Assembly (NCBI GenBank): GCA_024679065.1
Contig: JAGIQG010000009.1
Coordinates: 81,158,001-81,222,000, forward strand
Direction: 5' to 3'
DNA: 64,000 bases
Origin: Sphyrna mokarran
Taxonomy: Eukaryota
The notes under the pieces are model-generated. The model saw nothing but the letters and a program-made list of their open reading frames with translations. It ran no database searches and was not told the origin of the DNA. A program made the translations under genes and the position numbers. Numbering within the stretch: position 1 is the first letter of the stretch; each line of letters opens with the position of its first letter. This document shows, one piece after another, positions 1-64,000 of this stretch.

Positions 1-236
1 GTCAGACTGCTTACTTTGTCATTGATTGACAGTCCAAGCAACCAATCAGGACAATCACTTGGTGAAATGCAGCCAATCAGCTGATGGGGAGGTGGGACAT
101 TTCCAAAGCACTCACCAGACATATACTGAATATTCTTAATGTTTATTACCTTTTACACATTGACATTGACAGAAAAAAGACTTGAATAAACAGCCCAGCC
201 AGAGGAAGCTGGAGAAATTCACAGGGAAAATGGAGG

Positions 237-242
237 TTTATT
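237..242 (-). terminator. Poly(A) signal AATAAA of cluster 1 light-chain transcript (second candidate at 142-147)
   Basis: TTTATT on + strand ~380 nt past the stop codon; conserved in the other units at 30139-30144 and 60145-60150. Confidence 0.7.
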
Positions 243-621
243 AAAACACTTGTGGAGATTTTCTCAATAGCATGAGATTCCTGTCCTTTTAAACAGTAAC
301 TAAAGCTTCAATTGTAACTGCAGGGTGAGCAGGAAGGAGGTCTGGTTCACTGAAGCAGATACTTCAGAGGGTCACATTATATTTGTACAGCTGACGGTCT
401 TCAGCACTCCCAATAAAGGAGCAGCACGGGGTTAATAGAGAGTAAAGCTCCCTCTACAATATCCCAACAATGTTCTTTAACCCCTGACCCTCAGAAGTGT
501 TTCAGACCCAGTCACAGGAAGGAAAAGAATTGTAATTCAATGCTGACAGTGATCTTTACCCTTCCAGCTCACCTCTGTTCTATTACAAGTTGTGTCTCCT
601 CTGTGGACTGTTTCTAACAAT

Positions 622-950
622 CTAGGCACATTCTGAACTCCTGACACTCTTGCTGAGGGGAGAGGAGAGGCTCACGTGGGTGAGGGCACAAGAGAAGCGA
701 GCGTTGGACTCCCAGTCGGAGCCAGAGAGGGTCAGCAGGCTGCTGACGCTGTAGGTGTTGTCTGAAGCTCGCAGGTAGTTGCTGGTCTGAATCCCGTTGG
801 AAATGGCTGCACCGTCCTTCTTCCACTTCACCTCCACCTCATCGGGATAGAAGTGATCGGCAAGGCACACCAGGGTGGCAGTGCCCTTGGTCTTGACCTC
901 CTCCGGGGAGGGGGGCAGCAGGGTCAGCGTGGGTTGTGAATTCTCACGGG
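622..950 (-). CDS. IGKC: Ig light chain constant exon, kappa/NS4 type, cluster 1
   Basis: Polypyrimidine tract and ttccag acceptor at 951, phase 1. Reads (T)RENSQPTLTLLPPSPEEVKTKGTATLVCLADHFYPDEVEVKWKKDG...YSVSSLLTL...W...FSCALTH...SSECA*. C1-set Cys/Trp/Cys and a penultimate interchain Cys are present. Confidence 0.96.
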
Positions 951-2769
951 CTGGAACAGAAGAGAAGGAATTTTAATCACTGCCATTTTCAGCCTTTCAA
1001 CATCCCGAATATTAACTGGGATCAAATCAGTGTCAATGATTTGATGTTGCAGAATTCTGAAAATCCATTCGAGGGGAATGTTTTTAACCAGTCCAGAACA
1101 ATCCCAACAAGAGAAGGGTCAGTTTTAGCAGTTTTACAGAATGAAACTCAGCATGTGGAAGGTGTATCAGTGAGAGAGCATTTGGGTAATAATGATCATA
1201 ATAGATTTAGAGTAGCTCCGGAAAGGGGGAAAGATCGATCAAGAGTAAACTTTTTAAATGGGAAAAGGCCAATTTCTCTAAACTGGAATTTGCCAAAATG
1301 GAAAGGAAACAGTGACTTGAAGGTAAATCAGTGTCAGAGCAGTGGGAGGATATTCGAGCTGGAGATAGAGTCCAGGACATATATGTTCATCAAGCAATAG
1401 TGTGGGACATTGCAAAGAGAATAACTAAGGATTAAATAGGGCTGATTAGAGAGCAAAAAGGTAACTTGTGTGTGGAAGGACAAAGTTTACATTGTGGTTC
1501 AGGAGAGGAGGGATTGTGAAAGAATTAATGGGATAATGATAGTGAGCGAGGAGATATTAATGTGTTTATCACCATTTAAAATGGAGAAATTCCCAGGGCC
1601 GGGTGAAATATATCCCAGGATGTGAAGGGAAGAACAGGAAGAAATAACAGAGACTCTGACCATTATTTTCCAATCCTCTCTGTGTACAGGTGTGGTATGG
1701 GTGGACTGGAGGATGGAGCACACTTTTTCAAACTAAAAGCTGATGGATTCCGAGGGAAAGTGGCACATTCGAATTCAAATTACTTCCGTGTCTGAGGGTA
1801 AAGGTTTTGATTTGAAGCTGGTTAAATCATTTTGCAATCTTACCGAAACTGTAAACAAGATTAGTACAAATTCAGCACTGAAATGGTTAATACTGAGAGT
1901 ATTTAAAGACACGGTGTCCCTTTAAGAGACTGTTAACCAATCAGGAAGCTGGAACTATTGCTCAGTCTGTCTGGGGGAAACAGGTTGAGCATCAACAAAC
2001 CTCAGATCACACACAGATCAGGAGAACTTTATCCCAGAACATTGGAGCAGACTTAGATCAACACACTTCACACAGGATTCCCATTGGCTGGTGTAGAAGC
2101 TTCTAGATTTCATTTCAAACCTGACTGCCCAGGACGGGGCTGAGGTCAAGGGTGAGGCTACAATTAGTCTCAGTGTCCAGGGGTCAGACAGGGTCACTGC
2201 TCCGAATGACCCCATGAACTCTGCAGGATGTGAGTATGTGGATAATGGGTGAGGATCAGGATCAGGAATCTTCAACCTCACAGACAGAATTACATTTCTA
2301 TAGCACCTGTCACCACCTCAGAATGTCCCAATGTGTTTTACAGCTCATTGGGCACAGCAAGATCCCAGGGAGCAGAGTGAGAAAGAACAGATAAGCAGAC
2401 TTGAGGCGATATTGTCTGAGGGATGAATATTGACCAGTTCACCGGGGTGAACTCCCCTGCTCTTCTTCCAATAGCACCATGGGATCTTTTACACCCCCTG
2501 AGAGGGCAGATATCAGATTGTCTCATCTGAAAGACGGGAGGCCTGTAGTTTAGAGGGGGGATATGACAGGTACTGGTCCTTTCCCCATGAAGATTTTGGA
2601 AATGGATGGGGAAAGTGGGAGGTGAACGAGAGAAACATCTTTCTTGCTACTGAAACTCTTGCTATCTGCTCAGTCACATCCAATAAACACACAGACACAT
2701 CAGACAAACATCAGTCTGTTTCTGTGGATTCTCTGCTGCTTTCAGTTCAATGAAGAGTGCAGGAGGACA

Positions 2770-5585: not shown

Positions 5586-8500
5586 AAGAACGTAAGAAAC
5601 ATAAGAAATAGGAGCAGGAGCAGGCCATCCAGCCCCTCGAGCCTGCCCCGTCATTCAATAAAATCATGGCTGATCTGTAGTGATTCAGTACCACTTTACT
5701 GCTTTTCCCCTGTAACCCTTAATTCCTCTGTCAATCAAAAACCTATCCACTCTTGACTTGAACATATTCAGTGAGGAAGCCTCCAAAACCTCATCAGGCA
5801 GAGAATTCCAAAGATTCATAGAACATAGAACATAGAACATAGAACATTACAGCACAGGACAGGCCCTTCGGCCCTCGATGTTGTGCCGACCAAAATAAAA
5901 AGCAATGCCCCTCCAAACTAAACCATTCCCTTCTCTTCCATATACTTATCAACTAACCTCTTAAACGCCACCAAACTTGGCGCATCTACAACTGCTGCAG
6001 GCAGGGCATTCCACTCCCGAACCACCCTTTGGGTAAAGAACCTACCTCTGATATCCGTCCTATAACTACCACCCCTTAATTTAAAGCTGTTTCCCCTCGT
6101 GCTAGCTTTCCCCATCCTAGGAAAAAGGCTATCACTGTCCACCCTATCTAAACCTCTAATCATCTTATATGCTTCAATAAGATCCCCTCTTAGCCGCCTC
6201 CTTTCTAACGAAAACAACCTCAAATCCTTCAGCCTCTCTTCATAGGACCTGCCCTCCATACCAGGCAACATCCTGGTAAACCTCCTCTGTACCCTCTCCA
6301 ATGCCTCCACATCTTTCTTATAATGTGGGGACCAGAACTGCACACAATACTCCAAGTGCGGCCGCACTAGAGTTTTGTACAGTTGCAACATGACGTTGCG
6401 GCTCCGAAATTCAATCCCCCTACCAATAAAAGCTAAGACTCCATATGCCTTCTTAACAACCTTATCGACTTGACTGCCTACTTTCAGGGATCTATGCACA
6501 AATACACCAAGATCCCTCTGTTCATCAACACTATTAAGAATCCTACCATTAGCCCTATACTCTACACATTTATTATTCCTGCCAAAGTGCATTACCTCAC
6601 ACTTTTCCACATTAAACTCCATTTGCCACCTCTCAGCCCAGCTCTGCAACTTGTCCAAGTCTCTCTGCAAACTATAACACCCCTCTTCACTATCTACCAC
6701 TCCACCGACTTTAGTGTCATCTGCAAATTTACTAATCCATCCTTCAATACCCTCATCCAGATCATTTATAAAAATTACAAACAGCAGGGGCCCCAAAACA
6801 GACCCCTGAGGTACACCACTTGTCACCGAACTCCACGATGAATATCTCCCATCAACCACCACCCTCTGTCTTCTATCTGCTAGCCAATTCCTAATCCAAT
6901 TAGCTAAATCACCCTCTATCCCATACATCTGCATTTTCTGCAGAAGTCTTCCATGGGCCACCTTATCAAACGCCTTACTAAAGTCCATATATACCACATC
7001 AACCGCCTTACCCCCATCCACCTCTTTGGTCACTTTTTCAAAAAACTCAATGAGGTTAGTAAGGCACGACCTACCCTTCACAAAACCATGCTGACTATCC
7101 CCAATCAATTCATTCCTCTCTAAATAACTATAAATCCTATCCCTAATTATTCTCTCCAATACTTTGCCCACCACAGAAGTAAGACTCACTGGCCTATAAT
7201 TCCCTGGAAGGTCTCTCTTCCCCTTCTTGAACAATGGGACCACATTCGCTATCCTCCAGTCCTCCGGAACCACACCCGTAACCAACGACGACCTGAAGAT
7301 CAGAGCCAGAGGCTCTGCAATCTCCTCTCTTGCCTCCCAGAGAATCCTAGGGTAAATCCCGTCCGGCCCAGGGGACTTATCCAACTTCAAACCCTCGAGA
7401 ATTTCTAGCACATCCTCCCTATCTACTACAATACTTCCCAATTTGCAACCCTGTACCTCAGTGCTCTCCATAACTACATTTACATCACCCTGCGTGAATA
7501 CCGAAGAGAAATATTTATTCAGTGCCTCTCCAATCTCTTCAGGCTCCACGTACAACTTCCCACTGCTGTCTATGACTGGCCCTAATCTTGCCCTAACCAA
7601 TCTTCTATTCTTAACATATCGAAAGAAAGCTTTAGGATTCTCCTTAATCCTATCAGCCAACATCTTCTCGTGTCCCCTCTTAGCTCTCCTCAATTCACTT
7701 TTTAGCTCCTTCCTGGCTAATCTATAGCTATCCATTGCACTAACTGAGCCTTCAAGCCTCATCCTGACATAAGCCTCCTTTTTCTTTTTAACCAGCAAAT
7801 CAACTTTTTTCGTACACGAAGGTTCTCTTACTCGACCATTTCCTCCTTGCCTGACAGGGACATACTTATCAAGGACTCGCAGCAGCTGCTCCTTGAATAA
7901 GCTCCACATTTCAGATGTTCCCAGTCCCTGTAGTTTCCTAGTCCAATCTATGCACCAACCTTTGTGTGAAGAAACTCCTCTGCAACTCTGATCTGAACCA
8001 CTCCCCACACCGCCCTAATCTTGGCGCTGTGCCCTCTACTCCTGCTATCTTTGCTAAGCAAGAAGAGTCTCTCAACCTCTACCCTATCCATCCCCTTCAT
8101 TATCTTATATGTCTCTATAAGATCCCCTCTCAGCCTTCTAAACTCCAAAGAGTACAAACCAAGCCTATTCAGTCTCTCCTCATATTCCAACGCTCTCATC
8201 TCCGGTATCAGCCTAATAAACCTTCTCTGCATCCCCTCCAAGGCCAATATATCCCTCCTCGAATGTGGCGACCACAACTGCACACAGTACTCCAGCTGCA
8301 GCCTCACCAGTGCCCTATACAGCTGCAACAGAATCTCCCTACTTTTATATTCTATCCCCTTGGCTATAAAGGCCAACATTGCATTTGCCTTCTTAATCAC
8401 CTGCTGCACCTGTATACTGTGTTTTTGCGATTCGTGCACAAGGACCCCCCCCGGTACCTCTGCATCATCGCATGCTGCAGCTTTTTGTCATTCAAATAAT

Positions 8501-8837: not shown

Positions 8838-10748
8838 ATACATCAGTCCCATTATAACAGGAATCTATTTGGCATACATTCTCTGCACTTCCTCTGGAAC
8901 AAAAATATCCTTCCTGAGATAGGGAGACCAAAACTGTGCACAATATTCCCAGTGCTGTCTCACCAAAGCCCTGTATAACTGCAGCAGATCAGAATTATGA
9001 AGACATAGAACAGATACGAAGGAACTTTTCCCCTTTTAGCAGTAGATTCAAAAACCAGGGAGCATAAATTTAATTTCAGAAGCAGAAGATTTTGAGGGAT
9101 TGAAGGAAAAACCTTTTCGCTCAGAGGGTGTTGGGAATCTGGAACTCACTGCCTGAAAGTGTGGTGGAGGCAGGAACCCTCACAACACTTAAGAAGCATT
9201 TAGATGAGCATTTGAATTTGCAAAGCATACAAGGCTACGGATCAAGCGTTTAGAATAGTTAGGAATAGAATAGTTCGGAGCTTGATGGCTGTCAGAGACA
9301 GGATGGGCTGAAGGGCCTCTTTCTGGGCTGTAAATGTCTATGACACTCTGACTGAGCCAAGATGGCCGAGAATGTAAAGTGACCAACTTCTGGAAAATTC
9401 CAATGTGGATTATATTTGACAGACCAGACTCGAGAGAAGATGGAAAATCTCACCTGAAAGGTGTCAGGGGCTTCTTCAAACAGAAAATAGAAATGCAGAT
9501 AGAAAAAATGCCAAAGACTAAATTTTATTCTCCTGTTGTTACGAGACAATGGAGTCTGATTGTCACATCTCAGCAGACATCCAAAACCCATCTCCTGTTG
9601 AGTTATATCCCAGAATGTGGAAATGGTCTGAGTTCAAAGTAAACTGACTCTGGGGTGAAGGACATGTTTATTATATTTCAGGAAACAACAGGGAAATGGG
9701 TTAAAAATCCAACTGTATACCTGAGCTGTGTGTACTGGTGCTGGGGTGACAGAATGTGAGTTGAGACATTTTTCGGGTTCTCCAGTTTCCTCTCACAATC
9801 CAAAGATCTGCAGGTTCGATGGATTGGCCATGCTAAATTATTCCCAGTGTGTTTCCTCATATCTACCCTATCTCTGTCTCTCGTAATTCTGTCGATGGAC
9901 TGAATATCCTCCTCCTGCACTGTAGGGATTCAATGGCTAATAAAAAACTACACGGACTGTGTAAAGTTTCCACGGGTGAAGGGATCCATTTTAAATGAAC
10001 CCTGTTGTGACCAATCGAGGGCGGGATTCCAGCTGATTATTCCTCACCCAGAGGAAAACAAAATTGGGATCCAGTTCAGGAAGTTAACAAATGAGGGATC
10101 CTGTCTGAGGACTGGTCACAACATGTACACAGCAAGATCCCACACACAGCAATGAGAACAATCAGCATTTCCAGTGATGTTGGATCCGGGATAAATGTCG
10201 GATTGAACTCATCCCAAAGAGAAAGTAACAAAAGCCTGGAACACTGAAGCCACTGGATTGTGAGCCCTGCTGTGGCTGTTTGTCATCAGAACTTCAGCAA
10301 GAGATAAGCAGGGAGTGGAGAGAGCAGAGTGAAAGCTGGGGCAGGTGGCACCTCGGTGTCTCACTGTGCTGCTGCTGTGATCAGTGATATCAGAGAGTGA
10401 GACAGAGAGTTCAACTTCACATCAAACTCTGCCTGTGTGTGTCACACTGAGACCATCAGGAGTCTAGAGAGTGATTTCACTCCATGCTGCAGGAATGTGA
10501 ACACAGTCTGTCAACGTCCAGATCTCCTCCACACGGTGGGTAAAAGCTGCTTACTGAAATCTTGCTGCTTAAAGGGGGGGAATGGAAGGAAAGAAATACA
10601 GCTGGACTCCCTGTTCTACATAATGTTCTTCAATCAGACATTTCATTGACTGTAACTTCCTCACTAACACCTTCAACTATTCAGTATTTGTGTTTGAGAA
10701 AGTTTCAGCATTGAAAGGGTTAATAACGGAGGATTGGGCTTTACTTAC

Positions 10749-10783
10749 TCAGTCTGAGTTTGGTTCCTTTACCGAACGTAAGA
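10749..10783 (-). CDS. IGKJ: Ig light chain J segment, cluster 1 (LTFGKGTKLRL)
   Basis: FGxG motif; A|gtaagt phase-1 donor at 10749 matches the C exon phase; directly flanked by a 23-RSS. Confidence 0.96.
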
Positions 10784-10822
10784 CACACTGACAGCTTCCA
10801 GTGCAGGAGCTGTACGAAAACC
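10784..10822 (+). other. 23-bp-spacer recombination signal sequence of J, cluster 1
   Basis: CACACTG (10784-10790) + 23 bp + ACGAAAACC (10814-10822); one mismatch each to CACAGTG and ACAAAAACC. Confidence 0.93.
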
Positions 10823-11110
10823 TCTGTCTCTGACTCACTCACTCACTCATCTCTTTTTCACTTACTCTTTCTCTGTCACACTTTCTTTCTCACTCTTTCT
10901 CTCTCTCTGTTCTCTCGATGTATCTGTGTTTTACTGAGAGAGTTGAAAATTTTAATTTGAGATGAAAATCTTTCAGCTGCTCTTCATATGTGAACATGGA
11001 GAATAAGAGGGAAACTCAAGGCCTTCAGTGAGCGGTGGACACCACAGGGACTGGAGTGTGTAGTGGACAGTGCAAATAATTTGTTCAGTTTCCTTTCTTG
11101 TGTTTCTTAG

Positions 11111-12600
11111 ATATTATATAAAACTGTGGGATGTGTCAGTACAGGAGGTGGGACTGTGTGTCCATTATTATATATTATATAAAACTGTGGGATGTGTCAG
11201 TACAGGAGGTGGGACTGTGTATCCATTATTATATATTATATAAAACTGTGGGATGTGTCAGTACAGGAGGTGGGACTGTGTGTCCATTATTATATATTAT
11301 ATAAAACTGTGGGATGTGTCAGTACAGGAGGTGGGACTGTGTATCCATTATTATATATTATATAAAACTGTGGGATGTGTCAGTACAGGAGGTGGGACTG
11401 TGTGTCCATTATTATATATTATATAAAACTGTGGGATGTGTCAGTACAGGAGGTGGGACTGTGTGTCCATTATTATATATTATATAAAACTGTGGGATGT
11501 GTCAGTACAGGAGGTGGGACTGTGTATCCATTATTATATATTATATAAAACTGTGGGATGTGTCAGTACAGGAGGTGGGACTGTGTATCCATTATTATAT
11601 ATTATATAAAACTGTGGGATGTGTCAGTACAGGAGGTGGGACTGTGTGTCCATTATTATATATTATATAAAACTGTGGGATGTGTCAGTACAGGAGGTGG
11701 TACTGTGTATCCATTATTATATATTATATAAAACTGTGGGATGTGTCCATTATTATATATTATATAAAACTGTGGGATGTGTCAGTACAGGAGGTGGGAC
11801 TGTGTGTCCATTATTATATATTATATAAAACTGTGGGATGTGTCAGTACAGGAGGTGGGACTGTGTGTCCATTATTATATATTATATAAAACTGTGGGAT
11901 GTGTCAGTACAGGAGGTGGGACTGTGTATCCATTATTATATATTATATAAAACTGTGGGATGTGTCAGTACAGGAGGTGGGACTGTGTGTCCATTATTAT
12001 ATATTATATAAAACTGTGGGATGTGTCAGTACAGGAGGTGGGACTGTGTGTCCATTATTATATATTATATAAAACTGTGGGATGTGTCAGTACAGGAGGT
12101 GGGACTGTGTATCCATTATTATATATTATATAAAACTGTGGGATGTGTCAGTACAGGAGGTGGGACTGTGTGTCCATTATTATATATTATATAAAACTGT
12201 GGGATGTGTCAGTACAGGAGGTGGGACTGTGTGTCCATTATTATATATTATATAAAACTGTGGGATGTGTCAGTACAGGAGGTGGGACTGTGTGTCCATT
12301 ATTATATATTATATAAAACTGTGGGATGTGTCAGTACAGGAGGTGGGACTGTGTGTCCATTATTATATATTATATAAAACTGTGGGATGTGTCAGTACAG
12401 GAGGTGGGACTGTGTGTCCATTATTATATATTATATAAAACTGTGGGATGTGTCAGTACAGGAGGTGGGACTGTGTGTCCATTATTATATATTATATAAA
12501 ACTGTGGGATGTGTCAGTACAGGAGGTGGGACTGTGTGTCCATTATTATATATTATATAAAATTGTGGGATGTGTCAGTACAGGAGGTGGTGCTGTGTGT
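11111..12600. repeat. 61-bp minisatellite (~25 copies, one internally shortened) in the V-J interval, cluster 1
   Basis: Unit ccattattatatattatataaaactgtgggatgtgtcagtacaggaggtgggactgtgt(g/a)t; period 61 (e.g. 11162 to 11223). Confidence 0.97.
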
Positions 12601-12605
12601 GTTGG

Positions 12606-12633
12606 GGTTTTTGTAAGGCTCTGTATCACTGTG
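12606..12633 (-). other. 12-bp-spacer RSS of V, cluster 1
   Basis: Perfect consensus CACAGTG-atacagagcctt-ACAAAAACC on the minus strand. Confidence 0.98.
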
Positions 12634-12934
12634 TAGGGCCAGCTCTCACTTTGCTGACAGTAATAATCAGCGACATCCTCATTCTGAACATTGCTGATTG
12701 TCAAAGTGAATCTTGTATTGGAAATTTCATTGCCGCTGAATCGGTCGGATACTCCTGTGAAGCGGCTTACAGCATTGTAGATCAGCAGAGCCGGTTTCTG
12801 TCCTTCCCGCTGCTGGAACCATTCAACATCTCTACTCGCATCCTGACTGGCCGTACAGGTGATGGTGGCGGTCTGGCCCAGGCTCACTGACAGCACTGGG
12901 GGAGTCTGGGTCATGATGATCTCTCCATTGATAC
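12634..12934 (-). CDS. IGKV: Ig kappa-type V exon, cluster 1
   Basis: cctcag acceptor. Reads [100 protein letters not shown]. Conserved Cys, Trp and YYC; open frame. Confidence 0.97.
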
Positions 12935-13116
12935 CTGAGGGGTAATAGAGAAACAGAGTGAAGTCAGAACTGTCACAGAAAGAGGCTGTAAAATGAGATA
13001 TTGTTGGAGACACTGACTGTTCCTCTCCTTTCAACATTTTCCCTTCAATCACAAGTCAGGAGAATTGGATTGAAATGGAGAGCAGGAAAATATTCAAGGT
13101 GGAAGGAGATTAGTAC

Positions 13117-13165
13117 CTGCGATGCAGAATGCCAGAGGCCAGAGCAGCTGGATGGCTGAAATCAT
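13117..13165 (-). CDS. IGKV: Leader (signal peptide) exon of V, cluster 1: MISAIQLLWPLAFCIAG
   Basis: accATG start, 49-nt hydrophobic exon, G|gtacta donor in phase with the V exon. Confidence 0.92.
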
Positions 13166-13225
13166 GGTGTGTGCTCGTGTCCCTGTGCCTGGTTACTGAT
13201 AAACTCTCCCTTCACTGGGCTCTGC

Positions 13226-13322
13226 TTTATAAAGCTGCAGCCTGTGAGAGTCTCACTGCCTGTTCCTCAGTTTGTAAATGTTCTGACCCAGAGAAACCAC
13301 GTCAGCATCTTTCACTTCCTCT
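13226..13322 (-). promoter_or_regulatory. V promoter: TATA (13226-13233), TGACGTGG CRE/ATF-type site (13297-13304), Ets-IRF composite GGAAGTGAAA (13310-13319)
   Basis: Motifs lie 60-155 bp upstream of the ATG and all are conserved in the cluster 2 promoter. Binding is inferred from motif match only. Confidence 0.65.
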
Positions 13323-13685
13323 TCTTCTCTCTCTATCCCTCAGTCTCTGTCCCTGAGTCTCTGTCCCTCAGTCTCTGTTCCTTCGTCTCTGTCTTTCACT
13401 CCCTCAATATCTCTCCCTCACTCGCTGTCTCTCTCTGTCTCTTTCTCTCGATATCTGTCCCTCAATCTCTGTCTCTCTCATTCTATTGATATCACTCCCT
13501 CAATTCTTATCTCTTTCACTCTCTGTGTAACTCTCCATTTGTCTCTCTTTCTATCCACCACACTGTCGCTATCTCCCTTTCTTTTCATTCCTGTCTCACT
13601 CTCTTTGTTTACTCTCTCATTCACTCTTTCTCTCTTCTCATTCTTCCACCCTCTATTTCTCTCAGTTTTTCCTTCACTTTATCTC
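13323..13685. repeat. CT-rich low-complexity tract upstream of V promoter (counterpart ~42165-42563)
   Basis: Degenerate (CT)n/(TCTG)n polypyrimidine run. Confidence 0.8.
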
Positions 13686-15665: not shown

Positions 15666-15671
15666 CCATGT

Positions 15672-17918: not shown

Positions 17919-18034
17919 TCCCAGGATAACTCCCTCCTGACTGTATCCCACTGTGCCTTCTGTGCTGGGAGATTGGAGGTAGTGAACACGGTTCACCATT
18001 TTCTCCCGTCTCAGTAACAAACATCCAGCTGCTC
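17919..18034. repeat. 116-bp block, exact inverted copy of 29048-29163; also at 46432-46547 and 58592-58707
   Basis: Base-by-base comparison shows identity in all four copies. Confidence 0.95.
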
Positions 18035-42008: not shown

Positions 42009-42068
42009 GGTGTGTGCTCGTGTCCCTGTGCCTGGTTACTGATAAACTCTCCCTTCACTGGGCTCTTC

Positions 42069-49790: not shown

Positions 49791-50323
49791 TGTATAATGA
49801 GGCACGATATGTTGGAACGCTCTTCAAATATGGCCATATGGGTGCAGCTGAGAAATATAAAGAGCAATCATTGTATGGGATTATAGCACAGCCCTCCCAA
49901 CACTCAGCGGGAGATAGAGGAGCAGACAATCCGGAGGATTGGAGGATTGCGGATGTGGTCCCTATTTTCAAGAAAGGGAACAGGGATAGTCCTGGAAATT
50001 ACCGACCGGTGAGTCTGACCTCAGTAGTTGGTAAGCTGATGGAGAGGCTTCTGAGGGACAAGATTTACGAGCATTTGGAGAAGTTTAGGTTGATTAGAAA
50101 TAGTCAGCATGGTTTTGTAAAAGGCAGGTCATGCTTACGAGCTTAATTGAGTTCTTCGAAAATGTGACTGAACACATTGATGAAGGAAGAGCAGTGGACG
50201 TGGTGTACATGGACTTCAGCAAGGCATTTGACAAGGTCCCCCATGCAAGACTTCTTGAGAAGGTGAGAGGCCATGGGATCCAAGGGGCTTTGGCCTTCTG
50301 GATCCAGAACTGGCTTGCCTGCA

Positions 50324-50483
50324 TTCTAATCAGCAATCTCTGACTGTCTGTGTGGATATGAGTGCCTCTGCAGATCAGAACACTGCATTTGCCTGACGAA
50401 GGTGCATAGCATCGAAAGCTCGCGAATTTACTACCAAATAAATTGGTTGGATTTAAAATCGGTGTTGTAAAACCTTACTGAGT
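50324..50483 (+). mobile_element. Short Penelope-like insertion with 9-bp TSD
   Basis: TTGCCTGCA at 50315-50323 and 50484-50492; removing the insert restores CR1 WLACRRQRVVVDG; 3' part resembles the arms at 29656-29903. Confidence 0.8.
50387..50427 (+). ncRNA. Minimal type-I hammerhead ribozyme motif
   Basis: AUUUGC-CUGACGA-A-GGUGC-AUA-GCAUC-GAAA-GCUC-GCGAAU: stem I, conserved core, stem II, palindromic AGCU stem III, and UC cleavage site. Confidence 0.72.
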
Positions 50484-52866
50484 TTGCCTGCAGAAGGCAG
50501 AGGGTGGTTGTAGATGGCTCTTTTTCTGCATGGAGGTCGGTTACCAGTGGAGTGCCCCAGGGATCTGTTCTAGGACCCTTGCTGTTTGTCATTTTCATAA
50601 ATGACCTGGATGAGGAGGTGCAGGGATGGGTGAGTAAGTTTGCTGATGACACGAAGGTCGGTGGTGTAGTGGATGGTCTGGAGGCATGTCAAAAGTTGCA
50701 GCAGGACATCGACAGGATGCAAGACTGGGCGGAGAAGTGGCAGATGGACTTCAACGCAGATAAATGTGTTGTGGTCCACTTTGGCAGATCCAACGGGATG
50801 AATGAGTACACTATCAAAGGTAGGAGTCTTAGCTGTGTGGAAGAGTAGAGGGATCTTGGGGTCCGGGTCCATAAGACTCTCAAATCGGCCTCCCAGGTGG
50901 AGGATGTGGTTAAGAAAGCTTACGGTGTACTGGCCTTCATTCATCGAGGGATTGAGTTCAGGAGTCAGGAGGTAATACTGCAGCTTTATAGGACCCTTGT
51001 CAGACCACACTTGGAGTACTGTGCGCAGTTCTGGTCGCCTCACTATAGGAAGGACGTGGAAGCTATTGAAAGGGTGCAGAGGAGATTTACAAGGATGTTG
51101 CCTGGATTGGGAGGCATGCCTTATGAAGACAGGTTGAGGGAGCTGGGGCTGTTCTCCCTGGAGAGACGAAGGTTGAGAGGCGACCTGATAGAGGTTTACA
51201 AGATGTTGAGAGGAATAGATAGGGTGGACTCTCAGAGACTATTTCCCAGGGCTGAAATGGTCGCGACGAGAGGGCACAGATTTAAGGTGCAGGGAAGCAA
51301 GTACAGAGGGGATGCAAGGGGAAAGTTTTTCACTCAGAGGGTGGTGAGTGAATGGAATCGGCTGCCGTTGGTGGTGGTCGAGGCGAACTCGCTGGGGTCT
51401 TTTAAAAGACTTCTGGATGAGTATATGGGATCCAATGGGATTGGTGGTTATAGATAGGTCTATGGCTGGGTAGGTTTTGATGTGTTCGGCACAACTTGTG
51501 GGCCGAAGGGCCTGTTTGTGCTGTAGTGTTCTATGTTCTATATGTAGGCAAATCACAGAGAGAGGTGTGAGAGGAATAGGGCTATAGTAGTCGGGGATTT
51601 CAACCTCTCCAATATTCATAGAATCACCTCAGTGTGAAAGGGCTGGCACGGTGGCACAGTGGTTAACGCTGCTGCCTCACAACGCCAGGGACCCAGGGTC
51701 AATTCCAGCATCGGGTCACTGTCTGTGTGGAGTTTGCATGTTCTCCCCATGTTTGTGTGAGTTTCCTCAGGGTGCTCTGGTTTCCTCCCACAGTCCAATG
51801 ATGTGCAGGTAGACTGATTGGCCATGCTAAATTGCTCCTTAGTGTCAGAGTGACTAACAAGATAAATACAAAGAACAAAGAATAAAACAGCATGGGAAAC
51901 AGGCCCTTCGATCCAACGAGCCTGCGCCGCCACTTCGATGGTCCCACTTCTCCCCGTGATCCCTGTCATCCCTGTTTCTGTTGGACCAATTCTGTCCCAT
52001 AGAATGGCAGATGGGATGGAGAGGCCAAATTCATTTTCTTCGAGGACTTTGTTAAATGTTAACAAAATGTACTCACAAATTGACATAGAAAGCCCAGCAA
52101 TTATCCACACAATGAAAAATTTCACCAATATGCCTATGGGCAGCATTTCACCATCGTGTCAGACCATAAGCCATTGTTGGGACTTTTCCAGGACATTAAG
52201 CCAGTGCCATCTATTGCCTCTGCCAGGGTGCAGAGATGGGCATTGCTGCTGGCACTAAAGAGCTAAACCTTCCAGCACAGGCCGGGAACACAGATCTCAA
52301 ATGCAGATGCATTGAGCCGCCTGCCGCTACCACAGACTATACCATCACCGCCTGTTCCACGGGAGATAGTATTGACTCTGCATTATTTGGACACCCTGCC
52401 TGTCTCAGCAGCCCACATTCAGATGTGGCCAGATAGGGAGCTGATGTTAGCAAAGAGCAAGAAAATGGTACTGACTGGGCAGCACTTTGACAAGGCAGAG
52501 CAAGTGAAGTTGTATTTACATTGCAGGGACCAGATACCCTGTGAAGAGAGGGTGCTATTGTGGGGGAGGTCTGTGTCAACATACAACCCCCTGGACAGGG
52601 CCACTGCTCCAAGAGTTACATGATACCCATCCTAGCCACAGCAGAATGAAAGTGTTGGCCAGAAGTTATGGTATTAACAGAGACATTGAACAAATGGTTG
52701 GGCAGTGTGAGAGTTGTCCGACTCAGCAAGTGTTACCTCCATCAGTGAACATGCTCCCTTGGTCATGACTTCATGTAGGTTTTGGACAGATGTTCCTGAT
52801 GTTGGTCGATGCCCATTCCGAGTGACTGGATGATCAGCTCACGAGACCCATCACATCCTCCATTTA

Positions 52867-53623
52867 GAACATAGAACATAGAACATTACAGTGCAGAACA
52901 GGCCCTTCGGCCTTCGATGTTGCGCCGACCAATTATGAAAAAAAAAGCAATGACCCTCCAAACTAAACCATTCCCTTCTCTTCCATAAACTTAACAACTA
53001 ACCTCGTAAACACCACCAAACTTGGTGCATCTACAACTGCCGCAGGCAGGGCATTCCACTCCCTAACCACCTTCTGGGTAAAGAACCTACCTCTGATATC
53101 CATCCTATAACTACCACCCCTTAATTTAAAGCTGTGTCCCCTCGTGCTAGCTTTCTCCATCCTAGGAAAAAGGCTATCACTGTCCACCCTATCTAAACAT
53201 CTAATCATCTTATATGTTTCAATAAGATCCCCTCTTTGCCGCCTCCTTTCCAACGAAAACAACCTCAAATCCCTCAGCCTCTCCTCATAACACATGCCCT
53301 CCATACCAGGCAACATCCTGGCAAACCTCCTCTGCACCCTCTCCAATACCTCCACATCTTTCTTAAAATGTGGGGACCAGAACTGCACACAATACTCCAA
53401 GTGCGGCCGCACTACAGTTTTATACAGTTGCAACATGACGTTGCGGCTCCGAAATTCAATCCCCCTACCAATAAAAGCTAAGACTCCGTATGCCTTCTTA
53501 ACAACCTTATCTACTTGACTGCCTACTTTCAGGGATCTATGCACATATACACCAAGATCCCTCTGTTCCTCAACACTATTAAGAATCCTACCACTAGACT
53601 TATACTCTACACATTTATTATTT
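52867..53623 (-). mobile_element. Young CR1 3' fragment inserted in Gypsy integrase remnant, second unit only
   Basis: ORF 52963-53544; ATTTA on both sides; empty site at ~22865. Confidence 0.9.
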
Positions 53624-56600
53624 ATTTACCATCGATAAACTGAGGCAGATCTTTGTGATCCATGGTTTTCCTGAAATGTTGCTATCAGACAACAGAGCAG
53701 CATTCAATCTGATGAATCTCAGACTTTGATCAAGTCTAATGATATTTGTCATGTCAGGCCAGCCCCCGACCATTCTGCCTCGAATAGGTTGGTGGAGCGA
53801 GCCATGCTGATGTTCAAGGCTCCATGTGAAGCAGGTTCATGGGCCGCTGCCACTGTGAGCGGCCAGTTATTTGCTGTCCTATAACACTGCACCTCACACC
53901 ATCACTGGGGTCATGCCGGGGTCACACCCGCAGAGTTGTTAATGGGTCGGCACCTGTGTACCTGTTTAGATTTATTGTTCCCAAATTTGTTGGTGGGGGG
54001 TGGGGTGTGACTCTCAGAAAGGGGACAGATTGTTTCATGATGGCAACCTCATGTTGAGAGGGAATTTGGATGGTGGACCCAGTTGTGGAGAAGACAGGAC
54101 CAGTCTCATATTTGGGGGAGACACAGGGTTGTGGAGTTAAGGAACATGTTGATTACCTACGCAAGAGACCAGAGCAAGCTCCAGGAGATGAGCAATTGGG
54201 ATCCGTAACCAGTTTGTGTGTACCAGCTTCTGAACAAGACAATTCCATGTCCATCGTGTGGCCAAGGCAGCGTCTGGCTTGGGTGGGTGAGGCAGAGAAA
54301 AGGGGCCTAGCTCCAGAGATGGTTAGCACATCCACCCCATCAGTGGATCCTGTATCGATGGCTGCTGAAGTGCCCCTGATAGAGTTGCAGCGTTCCGCAA
54401 GATTCCAGAAATCTCTGGACCAGCTGACATTATGAACTGTCTTTCCCTGGTGTCCCTCCTGTAATATTGTTGTTTCTCTGCCTGTGTGTTAACTGTTGTA
54501 CTTTTTGTTTGATCACAGGGAGTCCAAGATGTTCCAGGGGAAGGAGTGTGTGAGCCTGGCCCCTTTAAGGGGCAATCCTTCACAGACCACATGACCAGAC
54601 CGGAGCCAATGGACTGTGAGGATGTGAACCTGGGCCAATCGGGAGTGAGGGTGATCATTCCTGGGACTGGAGGCTTCAGTTGGAGTCAGGATGTTGTTGG
54701 TAATAGATCTGTCTGCTTGTGTTGTTAAACCCTTCATTGGAAATACTTCTTCTCATCAATAAAGCCTTTAGTGAGTTATTTCCAAATCCACTCTCCTCCA
54801 CTTATTACAATCAGCATCTCTACCACTTTGGATAGCAACAGTCTCTCATAACATCAAATACACACACTAACTATTCAACTCGAACAGTTTCACCAGCTGC
54901 TGTCACCCTCCCTACTTCCCTCCATTTATTCTGCATTCTCACCATCTCCCCTCCATTTCTCACTGAATCCTCCACTTTCCTGCTCTTTCCTCTGTCCAGG
55001 TTCACCTGCCCCGTTCCCCTTGGGATTGTTCGATTGCTTTGTTCCAGAAACTTTCTGGTTGTGATCAGGGTTCTCTCCACTGCAACCCGAGACATTCGGT
55101 CTGGGCTCGTGTCGATGTTTAACATTCTGTCCCACCTTGGATTGAACACATAACCAGTGAGGGTCCGACCCACACGATGAGAGTTTGTCACCGTAAAGGA
55201 GTCAGGGATCCTGAATGCTGCCATATAACCTGTGTGTGATAATTATTCACTGGTTTGAGCTCAGAGTTACATAATATTGGATGTTGTTTTGGAACAAAGG
55301 GAAATCTCAATGTTCAGGAAACACAAGTGATTGAGAAGAAAGGGGTAGCTTCATGTAATAGTGTGTGTGTCCAGCCCTCAGTTCATGTATATAGTTAAAT
55401 GCATTGTTGTGTATTATAGAGTTTGTGTGTTTTGTTTTCTTTCTACATGTTGTGGATAGTCTGGAGGGATGTCTGAAGTTGCAGTGAGACATAGATAGGA
55501 TGCAAGACTGGGCAGAGAAGTGGCAGATTTTTTCAACGCGGATAAATGTGTGGTGGTCCATTTTGGCAGGACCAATGGAATGAAGGAGTATAATATCAAG
55601 GGTAGGAGTCTTGGCAGTGTTGAAGAGCAGAAGTATCTTGGGGTCCGGGTCCATAGGTCTGTTAAATCTGCCCCGCAAGTGGAGGATGTGGTCAAGAAGG
55701 CACATGGTGTACTGGCCTTCATTAATAGAGGAATTGAATTTAGGAGTCAGGAGGAAATGCTGCAACTTTATAAGACCCTTGTTAGACCCCACTTGGAGTA
55801 TTGTGTGCAGTTCTGGTCACCTCACTACAGGAAGGATGTGGAAGTTATTGAGAGGGTGCAGAGGATATTTACAAGGATGTTGCCTGGATTGGGGGGCATG
55901 CCTTATGAAGATAGGTTGAGAGGAGACCTGATAGAGGTTTATAAGATGTTGAAAGGAATAGATAGAGTGGATTCTTGGATGCTATTTCCCAGGGCTGAAA
56001 TGGTCGCTACGAGAGGACACAGGTTTAATGTGCTGGGGGGCAAGTATAGAGGAGATGTTAGAGGTAAGTTTTTCACTCAGAGGTTGATGAGTGAATGGAA
56101 TCGGTTCCTGTCAATGGTGGTAGAGGCGAACTCGCTGGGGTCTTTTAAGAGACTTCTGGATGAGTACATGGGATTTAATGTGATTGGGAGTTCCAGATAG
56201 TTCTATGGCCTGGGAAGTATCGATATGATCAGCACAACTTATGGGCCGAAGGGCCTGTTTGTGCTGTAGTGTTCTATGATCTAGGAATGAATATTCTGTA
56301 TTAATTATTCACACAAAGACTGGACTATTTCTCCCTGGTTCGCACACTTTTCTCACAGGATACTAAAGTGAAAATCTACACCACTAAGAACCAGTGTTCC
56401 ATGTTCCCATTCTGAGCTTTGAGATCCTTTCACATTTAACATCAGTGTGGGTCTTAACACCTCAAACAACATTCTATTCTCTCAAAAGTAACTCTGGAGA
56501 TTGTTGCTGGTGATTTTAAAATGATTCCAGATCCGTATAATTTTATTGTTGAGCCACCTTCTTTAACCTGCTACAAATTGCATCCATTAAACTTTTGGGT

Positions 56601-58924
56601 TTATATTTTGTGAAGAGACAAACACATTTTAAACTCTTCTTTCAGCACAGAAGCTTTCAGCATTTGGATTTGTGTCAATTGTTGTCAAAGCTTTAAAAAG
56701 AAACATTTCCTGTTGAGAACATTATCAGGACCCAAACCTGAACCTTTAACTTTGTAAGAATTATAATTTTCACGATCAAAATTGAAGCTCCCTCTTCCTG
56801 ATGTGTGTAGCTTTGTATCCAGATCAAAAGTCCCACATGTTTATTAACACATATTCTTTATCTTAGATAACATCTTTGTATCTCAAAGGTCACTTGCTGA
56901 AAGGTCAGATTCTTATTGATCTGTGTGTCCATATCAGATCTCCTATCCCCAAGTAGAAAATAACAGTGCTCCTGAAGGGGTTAAATCATTTTCCACAGAA
57001 TCCCTATCGTGCAGAAGGAGTCCATTTGGCCCATCGAATCTATACCATCAACAATCCCGTCCCATGTCCTATCCCTACAACCCCACACATTTACCTCACT
57101 AATCTCTCGAACCTCCACATCCTGGGACACTAAGGGGCAATTTAGCATGGCCAATAAACCTAACCCACATATCTTTGACTGGGGAAGGAATCCGGAGCAC
57201 CCAAAGTAAATCTATGCAGACACGGGGAGAATGTGCAAATCCCACAGTGATCCAAACAGGGAATCAAGCCCAGCTCCTTGGAGCTGTTATACAGCAGTGT
57301 TAACCACTGTGCCACTTGGTTCTAAACCATGACCATGGTGTGGGAGTAAAAATCTTCTTAATGTTGCTGGCAATGTTGTTCCATTTGTGATTCTCTGAAA
57401 ATAAAAACACAAGGTGCATTCTGCTCGAGGGGGGGAATGGATTCAGCAATCTGAAAGTTTAAGCTGTCGTTACAAAGAGTTCACTCTAGGCCCGATCTTA
57501 CCAATTGGAGCGAAAGGGCCGGATCCAGGAATAATACCGATCCGAGCCCGGAATTGTCACTGCAGCGAGCCCATATGCTTCTTATATATATTTTGAAATA
57601 ATGTAGCATTTTCTTTGTGCTGCCTAATTATCTGTGGGAAAGATAATTAAACTACAGTGTGCCAGTGAGCAATTAGTGAGCTGTTTGCCCCTGTAACCAT
57701 GAGCCAGGTGCTCAAATGTTCAGTCATGTGGTGAACTTGGAAGAATTGTCCCCATGGTGGAACTTGGTTGGAAATAAGATTCAAGGAGATTATTAAATCT
57801 GGGAAATGAACCATAGTGAAAAGAAGTTTGTATTGGCAACTCTTCTCTCACATTCCATGGCAGATGTGTCCCTCCTTATGAATGTGATTTGCACGGACAA
57901 CGTTGGGTGCAGCTAATCTGCCTCTGGAGCAGCCTTGGATCCTTTCGTTCTTCTTTTCATCTGAACATTGCACAGAATTAGAAGAATTCCCTTTGGGAAA
58001 TAATGTCAAAATTATAATGGCAAGAACTAAAAACCCAACAGTCAAAAATTTGGGAAAATATTTCAAAATATGGATGGGGGATATATATTTTGAAATATTT
58101 TCCCAAAGACTGTCAGATTGGAAGATTGAAACGTAACCAACAGAGGAAGTGAAAGAAGCAGCCGAATATTTGTTACTGAGACGGGAACAATTATCTGAAC
58201 AACATTAAACTTTCAGACTCAAAACAAATAAAAACACTAGCAGTGGAGGGGGTGGGAGGAATCTTGGAGACTGACACCGACAGGAACAATCTAAACAGCT
58301 GAAACTCCCATTTCCTCAGTCCCTGCCCGTCACTGCTCAGGAACTCCCCGAGGGGAACCCTCTCGCTCTGACACTCTCTCTCTCTTGCTGCTTCTGTCTT
58401 TCTCTCCTCTCTCTCTCTCTCTCTCCTGGATGAAAGCTTTAACAACTTGCAGCAAATTAATTCATTTCCATCTTTCTAATTATTTGAAAAATTCACTGAG
58501 TGACATTTTGAGTCCCCAATCTAAATTTTTCCCTCTCACTCACTGCACCTGACACCAGGAAATGGTCAATACTGTTTTACTGTACCAGTTCGAGCAGCTG
58601 GATGTTTGTTACTGAGACGGGAGAAAATGGTGAACCGTGTTCACTACCTCCAATCTCCCAGCACAGAAGGCACAGTGGGATACAGTCAGGAGGGAGTTAT
58701 CCTGGGAATCCTCAACAACATTCCAGACTCCATGTAGTCTCTCGTTACCATGTCAAACACAGACAAGGAAACCTCCTCTGGTTACCACATACCGTCCCCA
58801 CCTCTGCTGATGAATCAGTTCTCCTCCATGTTGAACACCATTTGGAGGAAGCACTGAGGGTGGGAAGGACACAGAATGTACTCTGGGTGGGGTATTCAAT
58901 ATCCATCATCAAGAGTTACTCCTT

Positions 58925-59385
58925 GTGGTTCACCAGGATGTTTCCTGGTATGGAGCGTCTTAGCTGTGAGGAGAGATTGGGTAAATTGGGGTTGTTCTCC
59001 CTGGAAAGATGGAGAATGAGGGGAGATCCAATCGAGGTGTACAATATTATGAAGGATATAGATAAGGTGAACAGCGGAAAGCTTTTTCCAAGGCCGGAGG
59101 TGACGATCGCGATGGGTCACAGGCTGAAGGTGAGAGGAACGGGGAATAACTCAGATATCAGAGGGACGTTTTTTACACAGGCGGAGGTGGGGGCCTGGAA
59201 TGCACTAACAAATAGGGCGGTGGAAGCGGACATGCTGGGATTGTTTAAGACTTACCTGGATCGTCACATGAGCAGACTGGGAATGGAGGGATACAAACAA
59301 ATGGTCTAGTTGGACCAATGAGAGCACAGGCCTGGAGGCCAAAGGGCCTGTTTCCGATGCAGTGTTGTTTTTTTGTTCTTTGTAT
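58925..59385 (+). mobile_element. CR1 3' fragment, second unit only
   Basis: FTRMFPG..ERL..LGLFSLER..RGD; absent at ~29375. Confidence 0.82.
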
Positions 59386-59609
59386 TTGAAACTATGGGAG
59401 TAGTGAGACCGTGTGAGAGGGGAAGGTCAAGCGGGAGGTGGTGAATGTGGGGTGGAGAATTGTAATTGTGATGGTTTAATCCCAGCAACTTTCAGTTTCT
59501 TTTCTGTTTTCAATCTTGTCACTCAAGAAATTCCAGATCAAACTGATCATTTTCAAATGGTTGATCATTGGATTTGAATCCAATCTTCTGCTGATGTGTC
59601 ATTGATGAT

Positions 59610-59915
59610 GATGTGGAGATGTCGGCGTTGGACTGGGGTAAACACAGTAAGAAATCTCACACCACCAGGTTAAAGTCCAACAGGTTTATTTAGTAGCACA
59701 AACCACTCGCTTTCGGAGCACTGACGCTTCATCAGGTGAGTGGGAATTCTGCTCACAAAGAGGGCATTTAAACACAAAATTGTAAATTATGTTCATATCT
59801 TTATATGCCCTGTTTGTGAATAGAATTCCCTCTCACCTGATGAAGGGTCAGTGCTCCGAAAGCGAGTGGTTTGTGCTACTAAATAAACCTGTTGGACTTT
59901 AACCTGGTGTCATAC
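59610..59915. mobile_element. Second copy of the palindromic Penelope-like element
   Basis: Arms span 59663-59909, with 4 mismatches between arms. Confidence 0.7.
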
Positions 59916-60528
59916 TGCTTCGTGTGTCATTGATTGACAGTCCAAGCAACCAATCAGGACAATCACTTGGTGAAAGGCAGCCAATCAGCTGATGGGGAGG
60001 TGGGACATTTCCAAAGCACTCACCAGACATATACTGAATATTCTTAATGTTTATTACCTTTTACACATTGACAGTGACAGAAAAAAGACTTGAATAAACA
60101 GCCCAGCCAGAGGAAGCTGGAGAAATTCACAGGGAGAATGGAGGTTTATTAAAACACTTGTGGAGATTTTCTCAATAACATGAGAATCCTGTCCCTTTAA
60201 ACAGTGACTGAAGCTTCAATTGTAACTGCAGGGTGAGCAGGAAGGAGGTCTGGTTTACTGAAGCAGATACTTAAGAGGGTCACATTATTTCTGTACAGCT
60301 GACAGTCTCCAGCACTCCCAATAAAGGAACAGCACGGGGTTAATAGAGAGTAAAGCTCCCTCTACAATATCCCAACAATGTTCTTTAATCCCTGACCCTC
60401 AGAAGTGTCTCAGACCCAGTCCCAGGAAGGAAGAGAATTGTAATTCAATGCTGACAGTGACCTTTACCCTCCCAGCTCACCCCTGTTCTATCCAAGTTGT
60501 GTCTCCTCTGTGGACTGTCTCTAACACT

Positions 60529-60857
60529 CTAGGCACATTCTGAACTCCTGACACTCTTGCTGAGGGGAGAGGAGAGGCTCACGTGGGTGAGGGCACAGGA
60601 GAAGCGAGCGTTGGACTCCCAGTCGGAGCCAGAGAGGGTCAGCAGGCTGCTGACGCTGTAGGTGTTGTCCGAAGCTCGCAGGTAGTTGCTGGTCTGAATC
60701 CCGTTGGAAATGGCTGCACCGTCCTTCTTCCACTTCACCTCCACCTCATCGGGATAGAAGTGATCGGCAAGGCACACCAGGGTGGCAGTGCCCTTGGTCT
60801 TGACCTCCTCCGGGGAGGGGGGCAGCAGGGTCAGCGTGGGTTGTGAATTCTCACGGG
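60529..60857 (-). CDS. IGKC: Ig light chain constant exon, cluster 3 (V and J outside window)
   Basis: 329-nt exon with tttcag acceptor; the ORF-track portion is identical in protein to cluster 1 C. Confidence 0.96.
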
Positions 60858-63800
60858 CTGAAAGAGAAGAGAAGGAATTTTAATCACTGTCATTTTCAGA
60901 CTTTCAACATCCCGAATATTAACTGGGATCAAATCAGTGTCAATGATTTGATGTTGCAGAATTCTGAAAATCCATTCCAGGGGAACGTTTTTAACCAGTC
61001 CGGAACAATCCCAACAAGAGAAGGGTCAATTTTAGCAGTTTTAGGGAATGAAACTCAGCATGTGGAAGGTGTATCAGTGAGAGAGCATTTGGGTAATAAT
61101 GATCATAATAGATTTAGAGTAGCTCCGGAAAAGGGGAAAGATCGATCAAGAGTAAACGTTTTAAATGGGAAAAGGCCAATTTCACTAAACTGGAATTTGC
61201 CAAAATGGAAAGGAAACAGTGACTTGAAGGTAAATCAGTGTCAGAGCAGTGGGAGGATATTCGAGCTGGAGATAGAGTTCAGGACATATATGTTCATCAA
61301 GCAATAGTGTGGGACATTGCAAAGAGAATAACTAAGGATTAAATAGGGCTGATTAGAGATCGAAAAGGTAACTTGTGTGTGGAAGGACAAAGTTGACATT
61401 GTGGTTCAGGAGAGGAGGGATTGTGAAAGAATTATTGGGATAATGATAGTGAGCGAGGAGGTATTAATGTGTTTATCACCATTTAAAATGGAGAAATTCC
61501 CAGGGCCGGGTGAAATGTATCCCAGGAAGTGAAAGGAAGAACAGGAAGAAATAACAGAGACTCTGACCATTATTTTCCAATCCTCTCTGTGTACAGGTGT
61601 GGTATGGGTGGACTGGAGGATGGATCACACTTTTTCAAACTAAAAGCTGATGGAATCCGAGGGAAAGTGGCACATTCGAATTCAAATTATTTCCGTGTCT
61701 GAGGGTAAAGGTTTTGATTTGAAGCCGGTTAAATCATTTTGCAATCTTACTGAAACTGTAAACAAGATTAGTACAAATTCAGCGCTGAAATGGTTAATAC
61801 TGAGAGTATTTAAAGACACGGTGTCCCTTTAAGAGACTGTTAACCAATCAGGAAGCTGGAACTATTGCTCAGTCTGTCTGGGGGAAACAGGTTGAGCATC
61901 AACAAACCTCAGATCACACACAGATCAGGAGAACTTTATCCCAGAACATTGGAGCAGACTTGGATCAACACACCACTCAGGATTCCCATTGGCTGGTGTA
62001 GAAACTTCTAGATTTCATTTCAAACCTTACTGTCCAGCACTGGGCTGAGGTCAAGGGTGAGGCCAGAATTAGTCTCAGTGTCCAGGGGTCAGACAGGGTC
62101 ACTACTCCGAATGACCTCATGAACTCTGGAGGATGTGACTATGTGGAGAATGGGTGAGGATCAGGATTAGGAATCTTCAACCTCACAGACAGAATTACAT
62201 TTCTATAGCACCTGTCACCACCTCAGAATGTCCTAATGTGTTTTACAGCTCATTGTGCACAGCAAGATCCCAGGGAGCAGAGTGAGAAAGAACAGATAAG
62301 AAGACATGAGGCGATATTGTCTGAGGGATGAATATTGACCAGTTCACCGGAGTGAACTCCCCTGCTCTTCTTCCAATAGCACCATGGGATCTTTTACACC
62401 CGCTGAGAGGGCAGATATCAGATTGTCTCATCTGAAAGATGGGAGGTCTGTAGTTTAGAGGGGGGATATGACAGGTGCTGGCCCTTTCCCCATGAAGATT
62501 TTGGAAGTGGATGGGGAAAGTGGGAGGTGAACTAGAGAAACATCTTTGTTGCTGCTGAAACTCTTGCTATCTGCTCAGTCATACCTAATAAACACACAGA
62601 CACATCAGACAAACATCAGTCTGTTTCTGTGGATTCTCTGCTGCTTTCAGTTCAATGAAGAGTGCAGGAGGACATGCCAGGAGCAACAACAGACAGACTG
62701 AAAAATGAGGTGTTACCTTGGTGAAGCTACAACACAGAGACTGTGTGCCAAACAGCAGAAGCAGCAAGTGATAGACAGAGTTAAACCATCCCACAACCAG
62801 TGGATCAGATCTAAGCTCTGCAGTCCTGTCACATCCAGCCATGAATGGTGGTGGACAATTAAACAACTCACTGGAGGAGGAGGCACCACAAATATTCCCA
62901 TCCTCAATGATGGAGGAACCCAGCACATCAGTACAAAAGATAAGGCTGAAGCATTTGCAGAATCTTCAGCCAGAAGTGCCGAGTGGATGATCCATCTCGA
63001 CCTTCCCCGGAGATCCTGAAGACTTGTGATCCAGAACTTCCCGTGTCCCTAACCAAGCTGTCCCTGTACATCTACAACACTGGCATCAACACAACATTGT
63101 GATAAATTACCCGGTTATGAACTGTGCACAAAAAACAGGACAAATCCAATCTACACAATAACCACCCCATCAGTCTACTCTCGATCATCAGCAATGTGAT
63201 CTGAACATATCCAGAGCGATACCAAGCAGCACTTACTCAGCAATAATCTGCTCACTGACACTCAGTTTGTGTTCTACCAGGGTCACTCAGCTCCTGATCT
63301 CATTACAGTCTTGGTTCAAACATGGACAAAAGAGCTGAACTCCAGAGGTGAGGTGAGAGAGACTGTCCTTAACATCAAGGCAGCATTTCAGCAAGTGTGG
63401 CATCAAGGAGCCCTCACAAAACTGGAGCCAATGGGAATCAGGGGAAAACTCTCCACTGGTTGGAGTTGTACCCGGCACAAAGGAAGATGGTTGTTGTTTG
63501 GGGTTTAACTCTACAATCTATATTAATGAGCTGGATGAAGGGAATGAGAGGAATGTCACTAAACTTGCTGATGATAAAATGAAAAATAGAAATGCATGTT
63601 GTGAGGAGGATACAGAGTCTGAAAAGGGATAGAGATAGGTTCAGTGAGTGGGGAAACATCGACAGATGGAGAATAATGTGGGAAAACGAGGTTGTCCACT
63701 TTGGCAGGAAAATAGAGCAGAATACTAGTAAACTGGAGAAATTCTATCCAGTGATCTGGATGTTTTTGCATCCAGGAACAGGAAAAAAATTAGGAAGGCA

Positions 63801-64000
63801 CTTGGAATGTTGCTGTTCATTCCAATGAGGATGAGTATAAAAGGAGGGATGTTTTACTACAGCACATTGGGAAAATCACACTGAGAATATTGTGGATACT
63901 TAGGGTCTCCTTACTTAAGGAAAGATATAGTGGAGTTGGAAAGAGTTCAGAGATGGTTCACTGGGCTGATTCCACCGAGTAAGGGATTGTCTTATGAGGA

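Follow-up and report, generated by a model that had tools for sequence, protein, structure and literature searches.

The immunoglobulin (Ig) genes of sharks lie in clusters, and rearrangement is generally considered to stay inside each cluster, one reason being their wide spacing. Linked runs of clusters in one orientation have been described for the heavy-chain (IgH), IgNAR and IgW genes of elasmobranchs (PMC5192425, PMC2435157, PMC12227049). Nurse shark IgM clusters lie 120 to >200 kb apart, and IgM and IgW clusters 82 to >200 kb apart (PMC5192425), and stingray IgNAR forms same-orientation runs of five and seven clusters with periods of 141–207 kb over 10 intervals (PMC12227049, table S1). 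Among light chains, the closest described genes are the nurse shark NS4 and horn shark type III kappa clusters, in which the variable (V) and joining (J) segments are close together, either split or already joined in the germline; the available part of that report gives no spacing between clusters (PMC2193156). Here, we analyse a 64,000 nt stretch of the Sphyrna mokarran genome (assembly GCA_024679065.1, contig JAGIQG010000009.1, positions 81,158,001 to 81,222,000; ‘the window’), in which two complete kappa clusters of V, J and constant (C) segments, and one extra C exon, are in view. We consider it likely that these are ordinary autonomous kappa miniloci in a tandem array with a period of ~30 kb, each rearranging within its own cluster.

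Head-to-tail runs of clusters are already known, and it is the 30 kb period that is tighter: it is ~5 times shorter than the published shark and ray heavy-chain periods, and a spacing of 82 to >200 kb is not found here. Our literature search, mostly of titles and the starts of abstracts, returned no figure for the spacing of shark kappa clusters, which is weak evidence of novelty. The available passages of PMC7677710 likewise say nothing about light-chain clusters.

Anatomy of the kappa array

The order of the genes is C3, V2–J2–C2, V1–J1–C1, with every segment on the minus strand and a single V, a single J and a single C alternating along the array. The segments, their recombination signal sequences (RSSs) and the intervening features, including a 3′ untranslated region (UTR) and a spacer rich in long interspersed nuclear elements (LINEs), are as follows.

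622–950, minus strand: C-kappa exon of cluster 1, open frame, C1-set domain
10749–10783, minus strand: J1 segment, LTFGKGTKLRL, with FGKG motif and GTAAGT donor
10784–10822, plus strand: J1 23-RSS, CACACTG-23-ACGAAAACC
11107–12600, unstranded: 61 bp minisatellite, ~24 copies, in the V1–J1 interval
12606–12633, minus strand: V1 12-RSS, perfect consensus
12634–12934, minus strand: V1 exon, divergent loop type (DASRDVE / NAVSRFT / NEISNT / QQSESWP)
13117–13165, minus strand: V1 leader exon, with a TATA-like box at 13225–13233
13166–30529, unstranded: spacer between clusters 1 and 2, including the C2 3′ UTR; LINE-rich and colinear with 42009–60528
30530–30858, minus strand: C-kappa exon of cluster 2, differing from C1 and C3 by P-to-S and V-to-I changes
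40832–40866, minus strand: J2 segment, LTFAKGTKLRL, with non-canonical FAKG
40867–40905, plus strand: J2 23-RSS, CACACTG-23-GCAAAAACC
41132–41442, unstranded: 61 bp minisatellite, five copies, in the V2–J2 interval
41448–41475, minus strand: V2 12-RSS, perfect consensus
41476–41773, minus strand: V2 exon, common loop type (SVSSY / DASST / SGSGT)
41960–42008, minus strand: V2 leader exon, followed by a leader intron of 186 nt
60529–60857, minus strand: C-kappa exon of cluster 3, whose own V and J are predicted near 71 kb, beyond the window

A first-pass annotation of this DNA had described C exons recurring in a single orientation at 622, 30530 and 60529, and those coordinates, taken at the ends of the stop codons, give periods of 29,908 and 29,999 bp. 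It had also described both visible clusters as split, with intact RSSs, and had read SVSSY and DASST in the complementarity-determining regions (CDRs) of V2. The V2 translation contains both motifs, and the V–J gaps measure 1,850 bp in cluster 1 and 609 bp in cluster 2, so that both clusters are in split form with V and J close together. The frames of the leaders, V, J and C are open, their GT/AG splice sites are in phase, and the J–C introns are ~9.8 and ~10.0 kb long.

Both clusters have the kappa-type arrangement of RSSs, with a 12-RSS on V and a 23-RSS on J. The two V signals are perfect (CACAGTG-12-ACAAAAACC), and the two J signals share the heptamer CACACTG, with a single mismatch in the heptamer and another in the nonamer of each. 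A scan of the window for RSS-like sites with no more than two mismatches returned four, against 0.075 expected from 40 shuffles, and no further strong RSS beyond those four. A 23-RSS-like site with three mismatches at 30058–30096 (plus strand), which lies in the C 3′ UTR beside a poly(A) signal and is oriented like a J-RSS, occupies the position of an RS/KDE-like element 3′ of C; it is within chance expectation, at 0.7 such three-mismatch sites. Its paralogues in units 1 and 3, at 156 and 60064, are weaker.

The V and C sequences are closest to shark kappa chains of the cartilaginous-fish NS4/type III class. Of 376 candidate proteins, 30 matched C1 at 78–90% identity; all 30 are from sharks and most are named kappa. 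PDB searches gave only generic antibody chains among the 60 matches listed.

Several repeats are superimposed on this plan. The 61 bp minisatellite, with ~24 copies against five in V2–J2, widens the V1–J1 gap to 1.85 kb, a difference from the NS4/type III clusters as described in the available text (PMC2193156). It could alter the efficiency of V1–J1 joining or vary between individuals. Most of the unit-1 copies contain a weak 23-RSS-like site with four mismatches. Upstream of both V leaders, at a distance of ~2.5 kb, is a 44 bp G+C-rich tandem repeat, at 15671–16439 (17.5 copies) and 44557–44705 (3.4 copies). Each J–C intron also holds a young LINE copy, at 5825–8014 (minus strand) and 34077–37023 (plus strand); the two are 96% alike, match Pfam RVT_1, are presumably CR1-like, and occupy different sites in opposite orientations. 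Altogether, 18.9 kb of the window is matched by the reverse transcriptase frame of this LINE.

Divergence between units and a probable mosaic in V1

Comparison of the units bears on whether the array exists as assembled. A colinear alignment of units 1 and 2 extends over 21,816 bp with 91.8% identity, spacers included, and unit 3 is 95–96% identical to the first 4.1 kb. Because the units are colinear paralogues, spacers included, the tandem layout is probably real; judged by their divergence, they are best read as the product of paralogous tandem duplication and not as a duplicated haplotype. The contrary reading, that the assembly wrongly combined scattered clusters or haplotype copies into an array, draws on the repeat-rich nature of the paralogues and on the 98.8–99.4% identity of the three C exons. 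We consider it most improbable. The units differ by 6.6% over the 15,708 columns of 13 chosen non-coding blocks, their LINE insertions are independent and differ between units, and the C-to-V spacer is present twice, colinear yet diverged, in a window that has no N. The kappa models of several other sharks, moreover, lie together on one long contig, and some have adjacent accession numbers (distances are not given), which hints that such linkage is general. The exact order of the units could still be wrong in the assembly.

Divergence among the three units is patchy over 4.1 kb (maximum-χ2 permutation p=0.0025, 181 sites). The unit-2 counterpart of window positions 1601–2000, at ~31570–31970, carries 34 private differences in ~400 columns, compared with two in unit 1 and six in unit 3; the divergent stretch is possibly a conversion tract from a more distant paralogue. 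A contrast between V frameworks and spacers (3/150 vs 6.6%, p=0.019) was also tried as proof of gene conversion and set aside, as it left out framework 2 (FR2; 5/45) and purifying selection also explains it.

The two V genes differ in an uneven way. Between V1 and V2, 33 of the 90 nt that make up CDR1, CDR2, the DE loop and CDR3 differ, as do five of 45 nt in FR2 and three of 150 nt in the other frameworks. Their framework residues match at 63/64 positions and their loop residues at 15/31. The best database match of V1 is a bamboo shark protein (P0034, 82%), with which it has in common DVEW, NA, a seven-residue DE loop and QQSESWP, and with which it matches at 57/64 framework and 22/31 loop residues. 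The seven-residue DE loop, which has an extra residue, occurred in four of 37 pattern-matched proteins (V1, P0034, P0010 and P0031, the last a model that lacks part of FR3). V1 and P0034 grouped at 91/91, below the starred level, in a tree of 30 rows from which five rows missed by the pattern had been dropped and into which three fetched proteins were not entered. V1 shares its loop set with carpet sharks (bamboo, epaulette and zebra shark models). These patterns suggest that homogenisation within the array acted on frameworks and flanks but left an old loop type in place, and convergence is a less likely source of the V1 loops. V1 may be a candidate for the NS4 clade III ‘divergent FR3’ group mentioned in the available part of PMC2193156.

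Joining within and between clusters

The DNA itself shows how the segments are laid out, their open frames and splice phase, the 12/23 RSSs, and the colinearity and patchiness of the units; clusters 1 and 2 may be active. A search for RNA records matching window positions 9800–13400 listed 20, none of which contained half of the words of that stretch, which counts neither for nor against expression. If the units are autonomous, RAG would pair every V with the J of its own cluster through a short deletion. The own perfect-RSS V of each J is 17–50 times nearer than the next V, and a J-bound RAG complex would meet this strong signal at 0.6–1.9 kb well ahead of the following V, which is 31 kb away; the join would then use up both RSSs, so that diversity would come from cluster choice, junctions and hypermutation, and not from V-by-J combinations. 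The array itself would have grown by unequal crossing-over, with germline homogenisation acting on the units patchwise and the V loops kept diverse. Published joining data are consistent with this scheme. In mouse Igk, RAG that scans the locus is reported to be limited by strong V-RSSs to the V nearest upstream (PMC13190342). Horn shark IgH is described as joining within rather than between clusters (PMC2191167), the 97 nurse shark IgH joins of a published account, with one possible exception, fell within the minilocus (PMC2435157), and leapfrogging between same-polarity mouse lambda clusters is stated to be extremely rare (PMC3014032).

Several observations weigh against autonomy. The shark joining evidence concerns IgH clusters at least 82–120 kb apart, not kappa clusters at 30 kb. 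Zebrafish Ig light-chain (IgL) joins are reported to span clusters up to 81 kb apart, and the same report names distance as one reason why sharks lack inter-cluster joins (PMC3014032). Shark IgH V segments are described as joining T-cell receptor (TCR) delta D segments in a linked complex (PMC12227049). Within the window, CTCF-like sites between clusters are not in excess (13 consensus matches vs 12.1 expected). The 600 bp upstream of each leader (13166–13765 and 42009–42608) contain no consensus octamer, whereas nurse shark NS4 genes have been described with an octamer, a further difference from the clusters treated in the accessible part of PMC2193156; the one exact match in the window lies away from the promoters, at 22024, and the best promoter match has two mismatches.

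The geometry of inter-cluster joining proposed by the first-pass annotation is borne out. The V2 12-RSS faces the J1 23-RSS in deletional orientation at 30,692 bp (~31 kb had been claimed), the pair is 12/23-compatible, and the argument that shark clusters are too far apart to recombine is weakened here because the period is ~5 times shorter than heavy-chain periods. Joins between clusters are mechanically possible but likely rare. The sequence alone gives geometry, not function, and the further proposal, that the array acts as a mini-translocon in which routine adjacent V2–J1 joins add combinatorial diversity, is very unlikely on our reading. Such a join would replace the non-canonical FAKG of V2’s own J with the FGKG of J1, although FAKG also occurs in two of the 24 shark kappa J motifs listed, both of them in basking shark gene models. 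The difference between J1 and J2 amounts to 2 nt and one residue (G versus A), and among units the C domains vary by zero to two residues, so cross-joining adds almost no diversity: the combinatorial gain is tiny, and J2, C2 and V1 are lost in exchange. The layout of many V segments, several J segments and one C is also absent. Nor would the V2–J1 join serve as editing that deletes a failed cluster, as had been suggested, since our enumeration of joins among three clusters shows that it takes out only the unrearranged J2, C2 and V1 and can no longer occur after V2 or J1 has been consumed in a join.

The same enumeration leaves a single join that removes an existing VJ, namely V3–J1 after V2–J2. 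Receptor editing could take this form: after a failed or self-reactive V2J2, V3–J1 joining would delete V2J2–C2 and yield a new light chain. The distance, ~61 kb if the period holds (the V3 position, outside the window, is extrapolated), is shorter than the 81 kb reported between zebrafish clusters, distance was one stated reason for the missing shark joins (PMC3014032, in the part available), and no CTCF-like barrier was found between the clusters. V1, however, has a perfect RSS only 1.85 kb from J1 and would outcompete V3, and a non-productive VJ needs no deletion when another cluster can be used instead. We give this route a small chance, and it is correspondingly doubtful that V(n+2)–J(n) joins over ~60 kb make the array a working intermediate between cluster and translocon organisations. 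Exchange need not involve RAG at all: switch-like recombination dependent on activation-induced cytidine deaminase (AID), acting in the 10 kb J–C introns, could move a finished V2J2 onto C1. Such recombination has been reported for nurse shark IgH clusters >120 kb apart (PMC4279169), and the J–C introns here are 89–96% alike over several kb. The effect would be nearly silent, as C1, C2 and C3 differ by zero to two residues, and the process is compatible with autonomous miniloci rather than an alternative to them; its chance of operating here is slim.

The mechanism by which sharks silence self-reactive light chains is an open question in the field, and leapfrog joins, if real, would give them a deletional receptor-editing route through tight packing. 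Because the clusters carry specific single-nucleotide polymorphisms (SNPs), two in J and 16–28 substitutions per pair in C plus 3′ UTR, the questions of inter-cluster joining and editing are directly testable. Two complications attend the markers. The J2 FAKG base lies in TGCT, a WRCH motif (AID hotspot), and G:C mutations in shark TCR-alpha are reported to be 4.3 times as frequent inside WRCH-type motifs (PMC5931798). FAKG could thus become FGKG by one hypermutation, which makes the FGKG marker ambiguous. By analogy with IgH, AID-linked switching of a finished V onto the C of another cluster would mimic V/C chimeras. The nurse shark is described as having ~50–70 kappa genes, and other V2-like clusters probably exist. 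The 30 kb array removes the distance argument: a negative outcome would show clusters to be kept autonomous by proximity or locus-restricted accessibility and not by distance, and a positive one would be relevant to the origin of translocons from clusters.

Comparison with other light-chain loci

Three other arrangements share features with the array described here. The zebrafish IgL loci likewise consist of closely linked V–J–C clusters with RSSs compatible between clusters, but V is often inverted there and the joins are described as inversional and segment-conserving (PMC3014032). In the shark array, V polarity opposite to J–C is not seen, as all segments in the window lie on the minus strand, and all possible joins are deletional. 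The mammalian Ig-kappa translocon resembles it in 12/23 polarity and strong V-RSSs, and is described as having many V segments, tandem J segments and one C, together with Cer/Sis and RS/KDE elements (PMC13190342). In the shark array, every J instead comes with a V and a C that belong to it; the three kinds of segment alternate in place of many V segments upstream of several J segments, no Cer/Sis element and no RS/KDE-like site beyond chance expectation was found in the window, and there is no spare downstream J through which an adjacent V could replace a VJ, as V2–J1 cannot.

The two-cluster mouse Ig-lambda locus has same-polarity clusters between which deletional leapfrog joins are possible, and differs in having several J–C pairs per cluster. 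The rarity of leapfrogging in that locus is, by analogy, the best functional guide to what the shark array may do. Overall, the locus is a member of the known shark kappa multicluster family, more tightly spaced than the published heavy-chain arrays.

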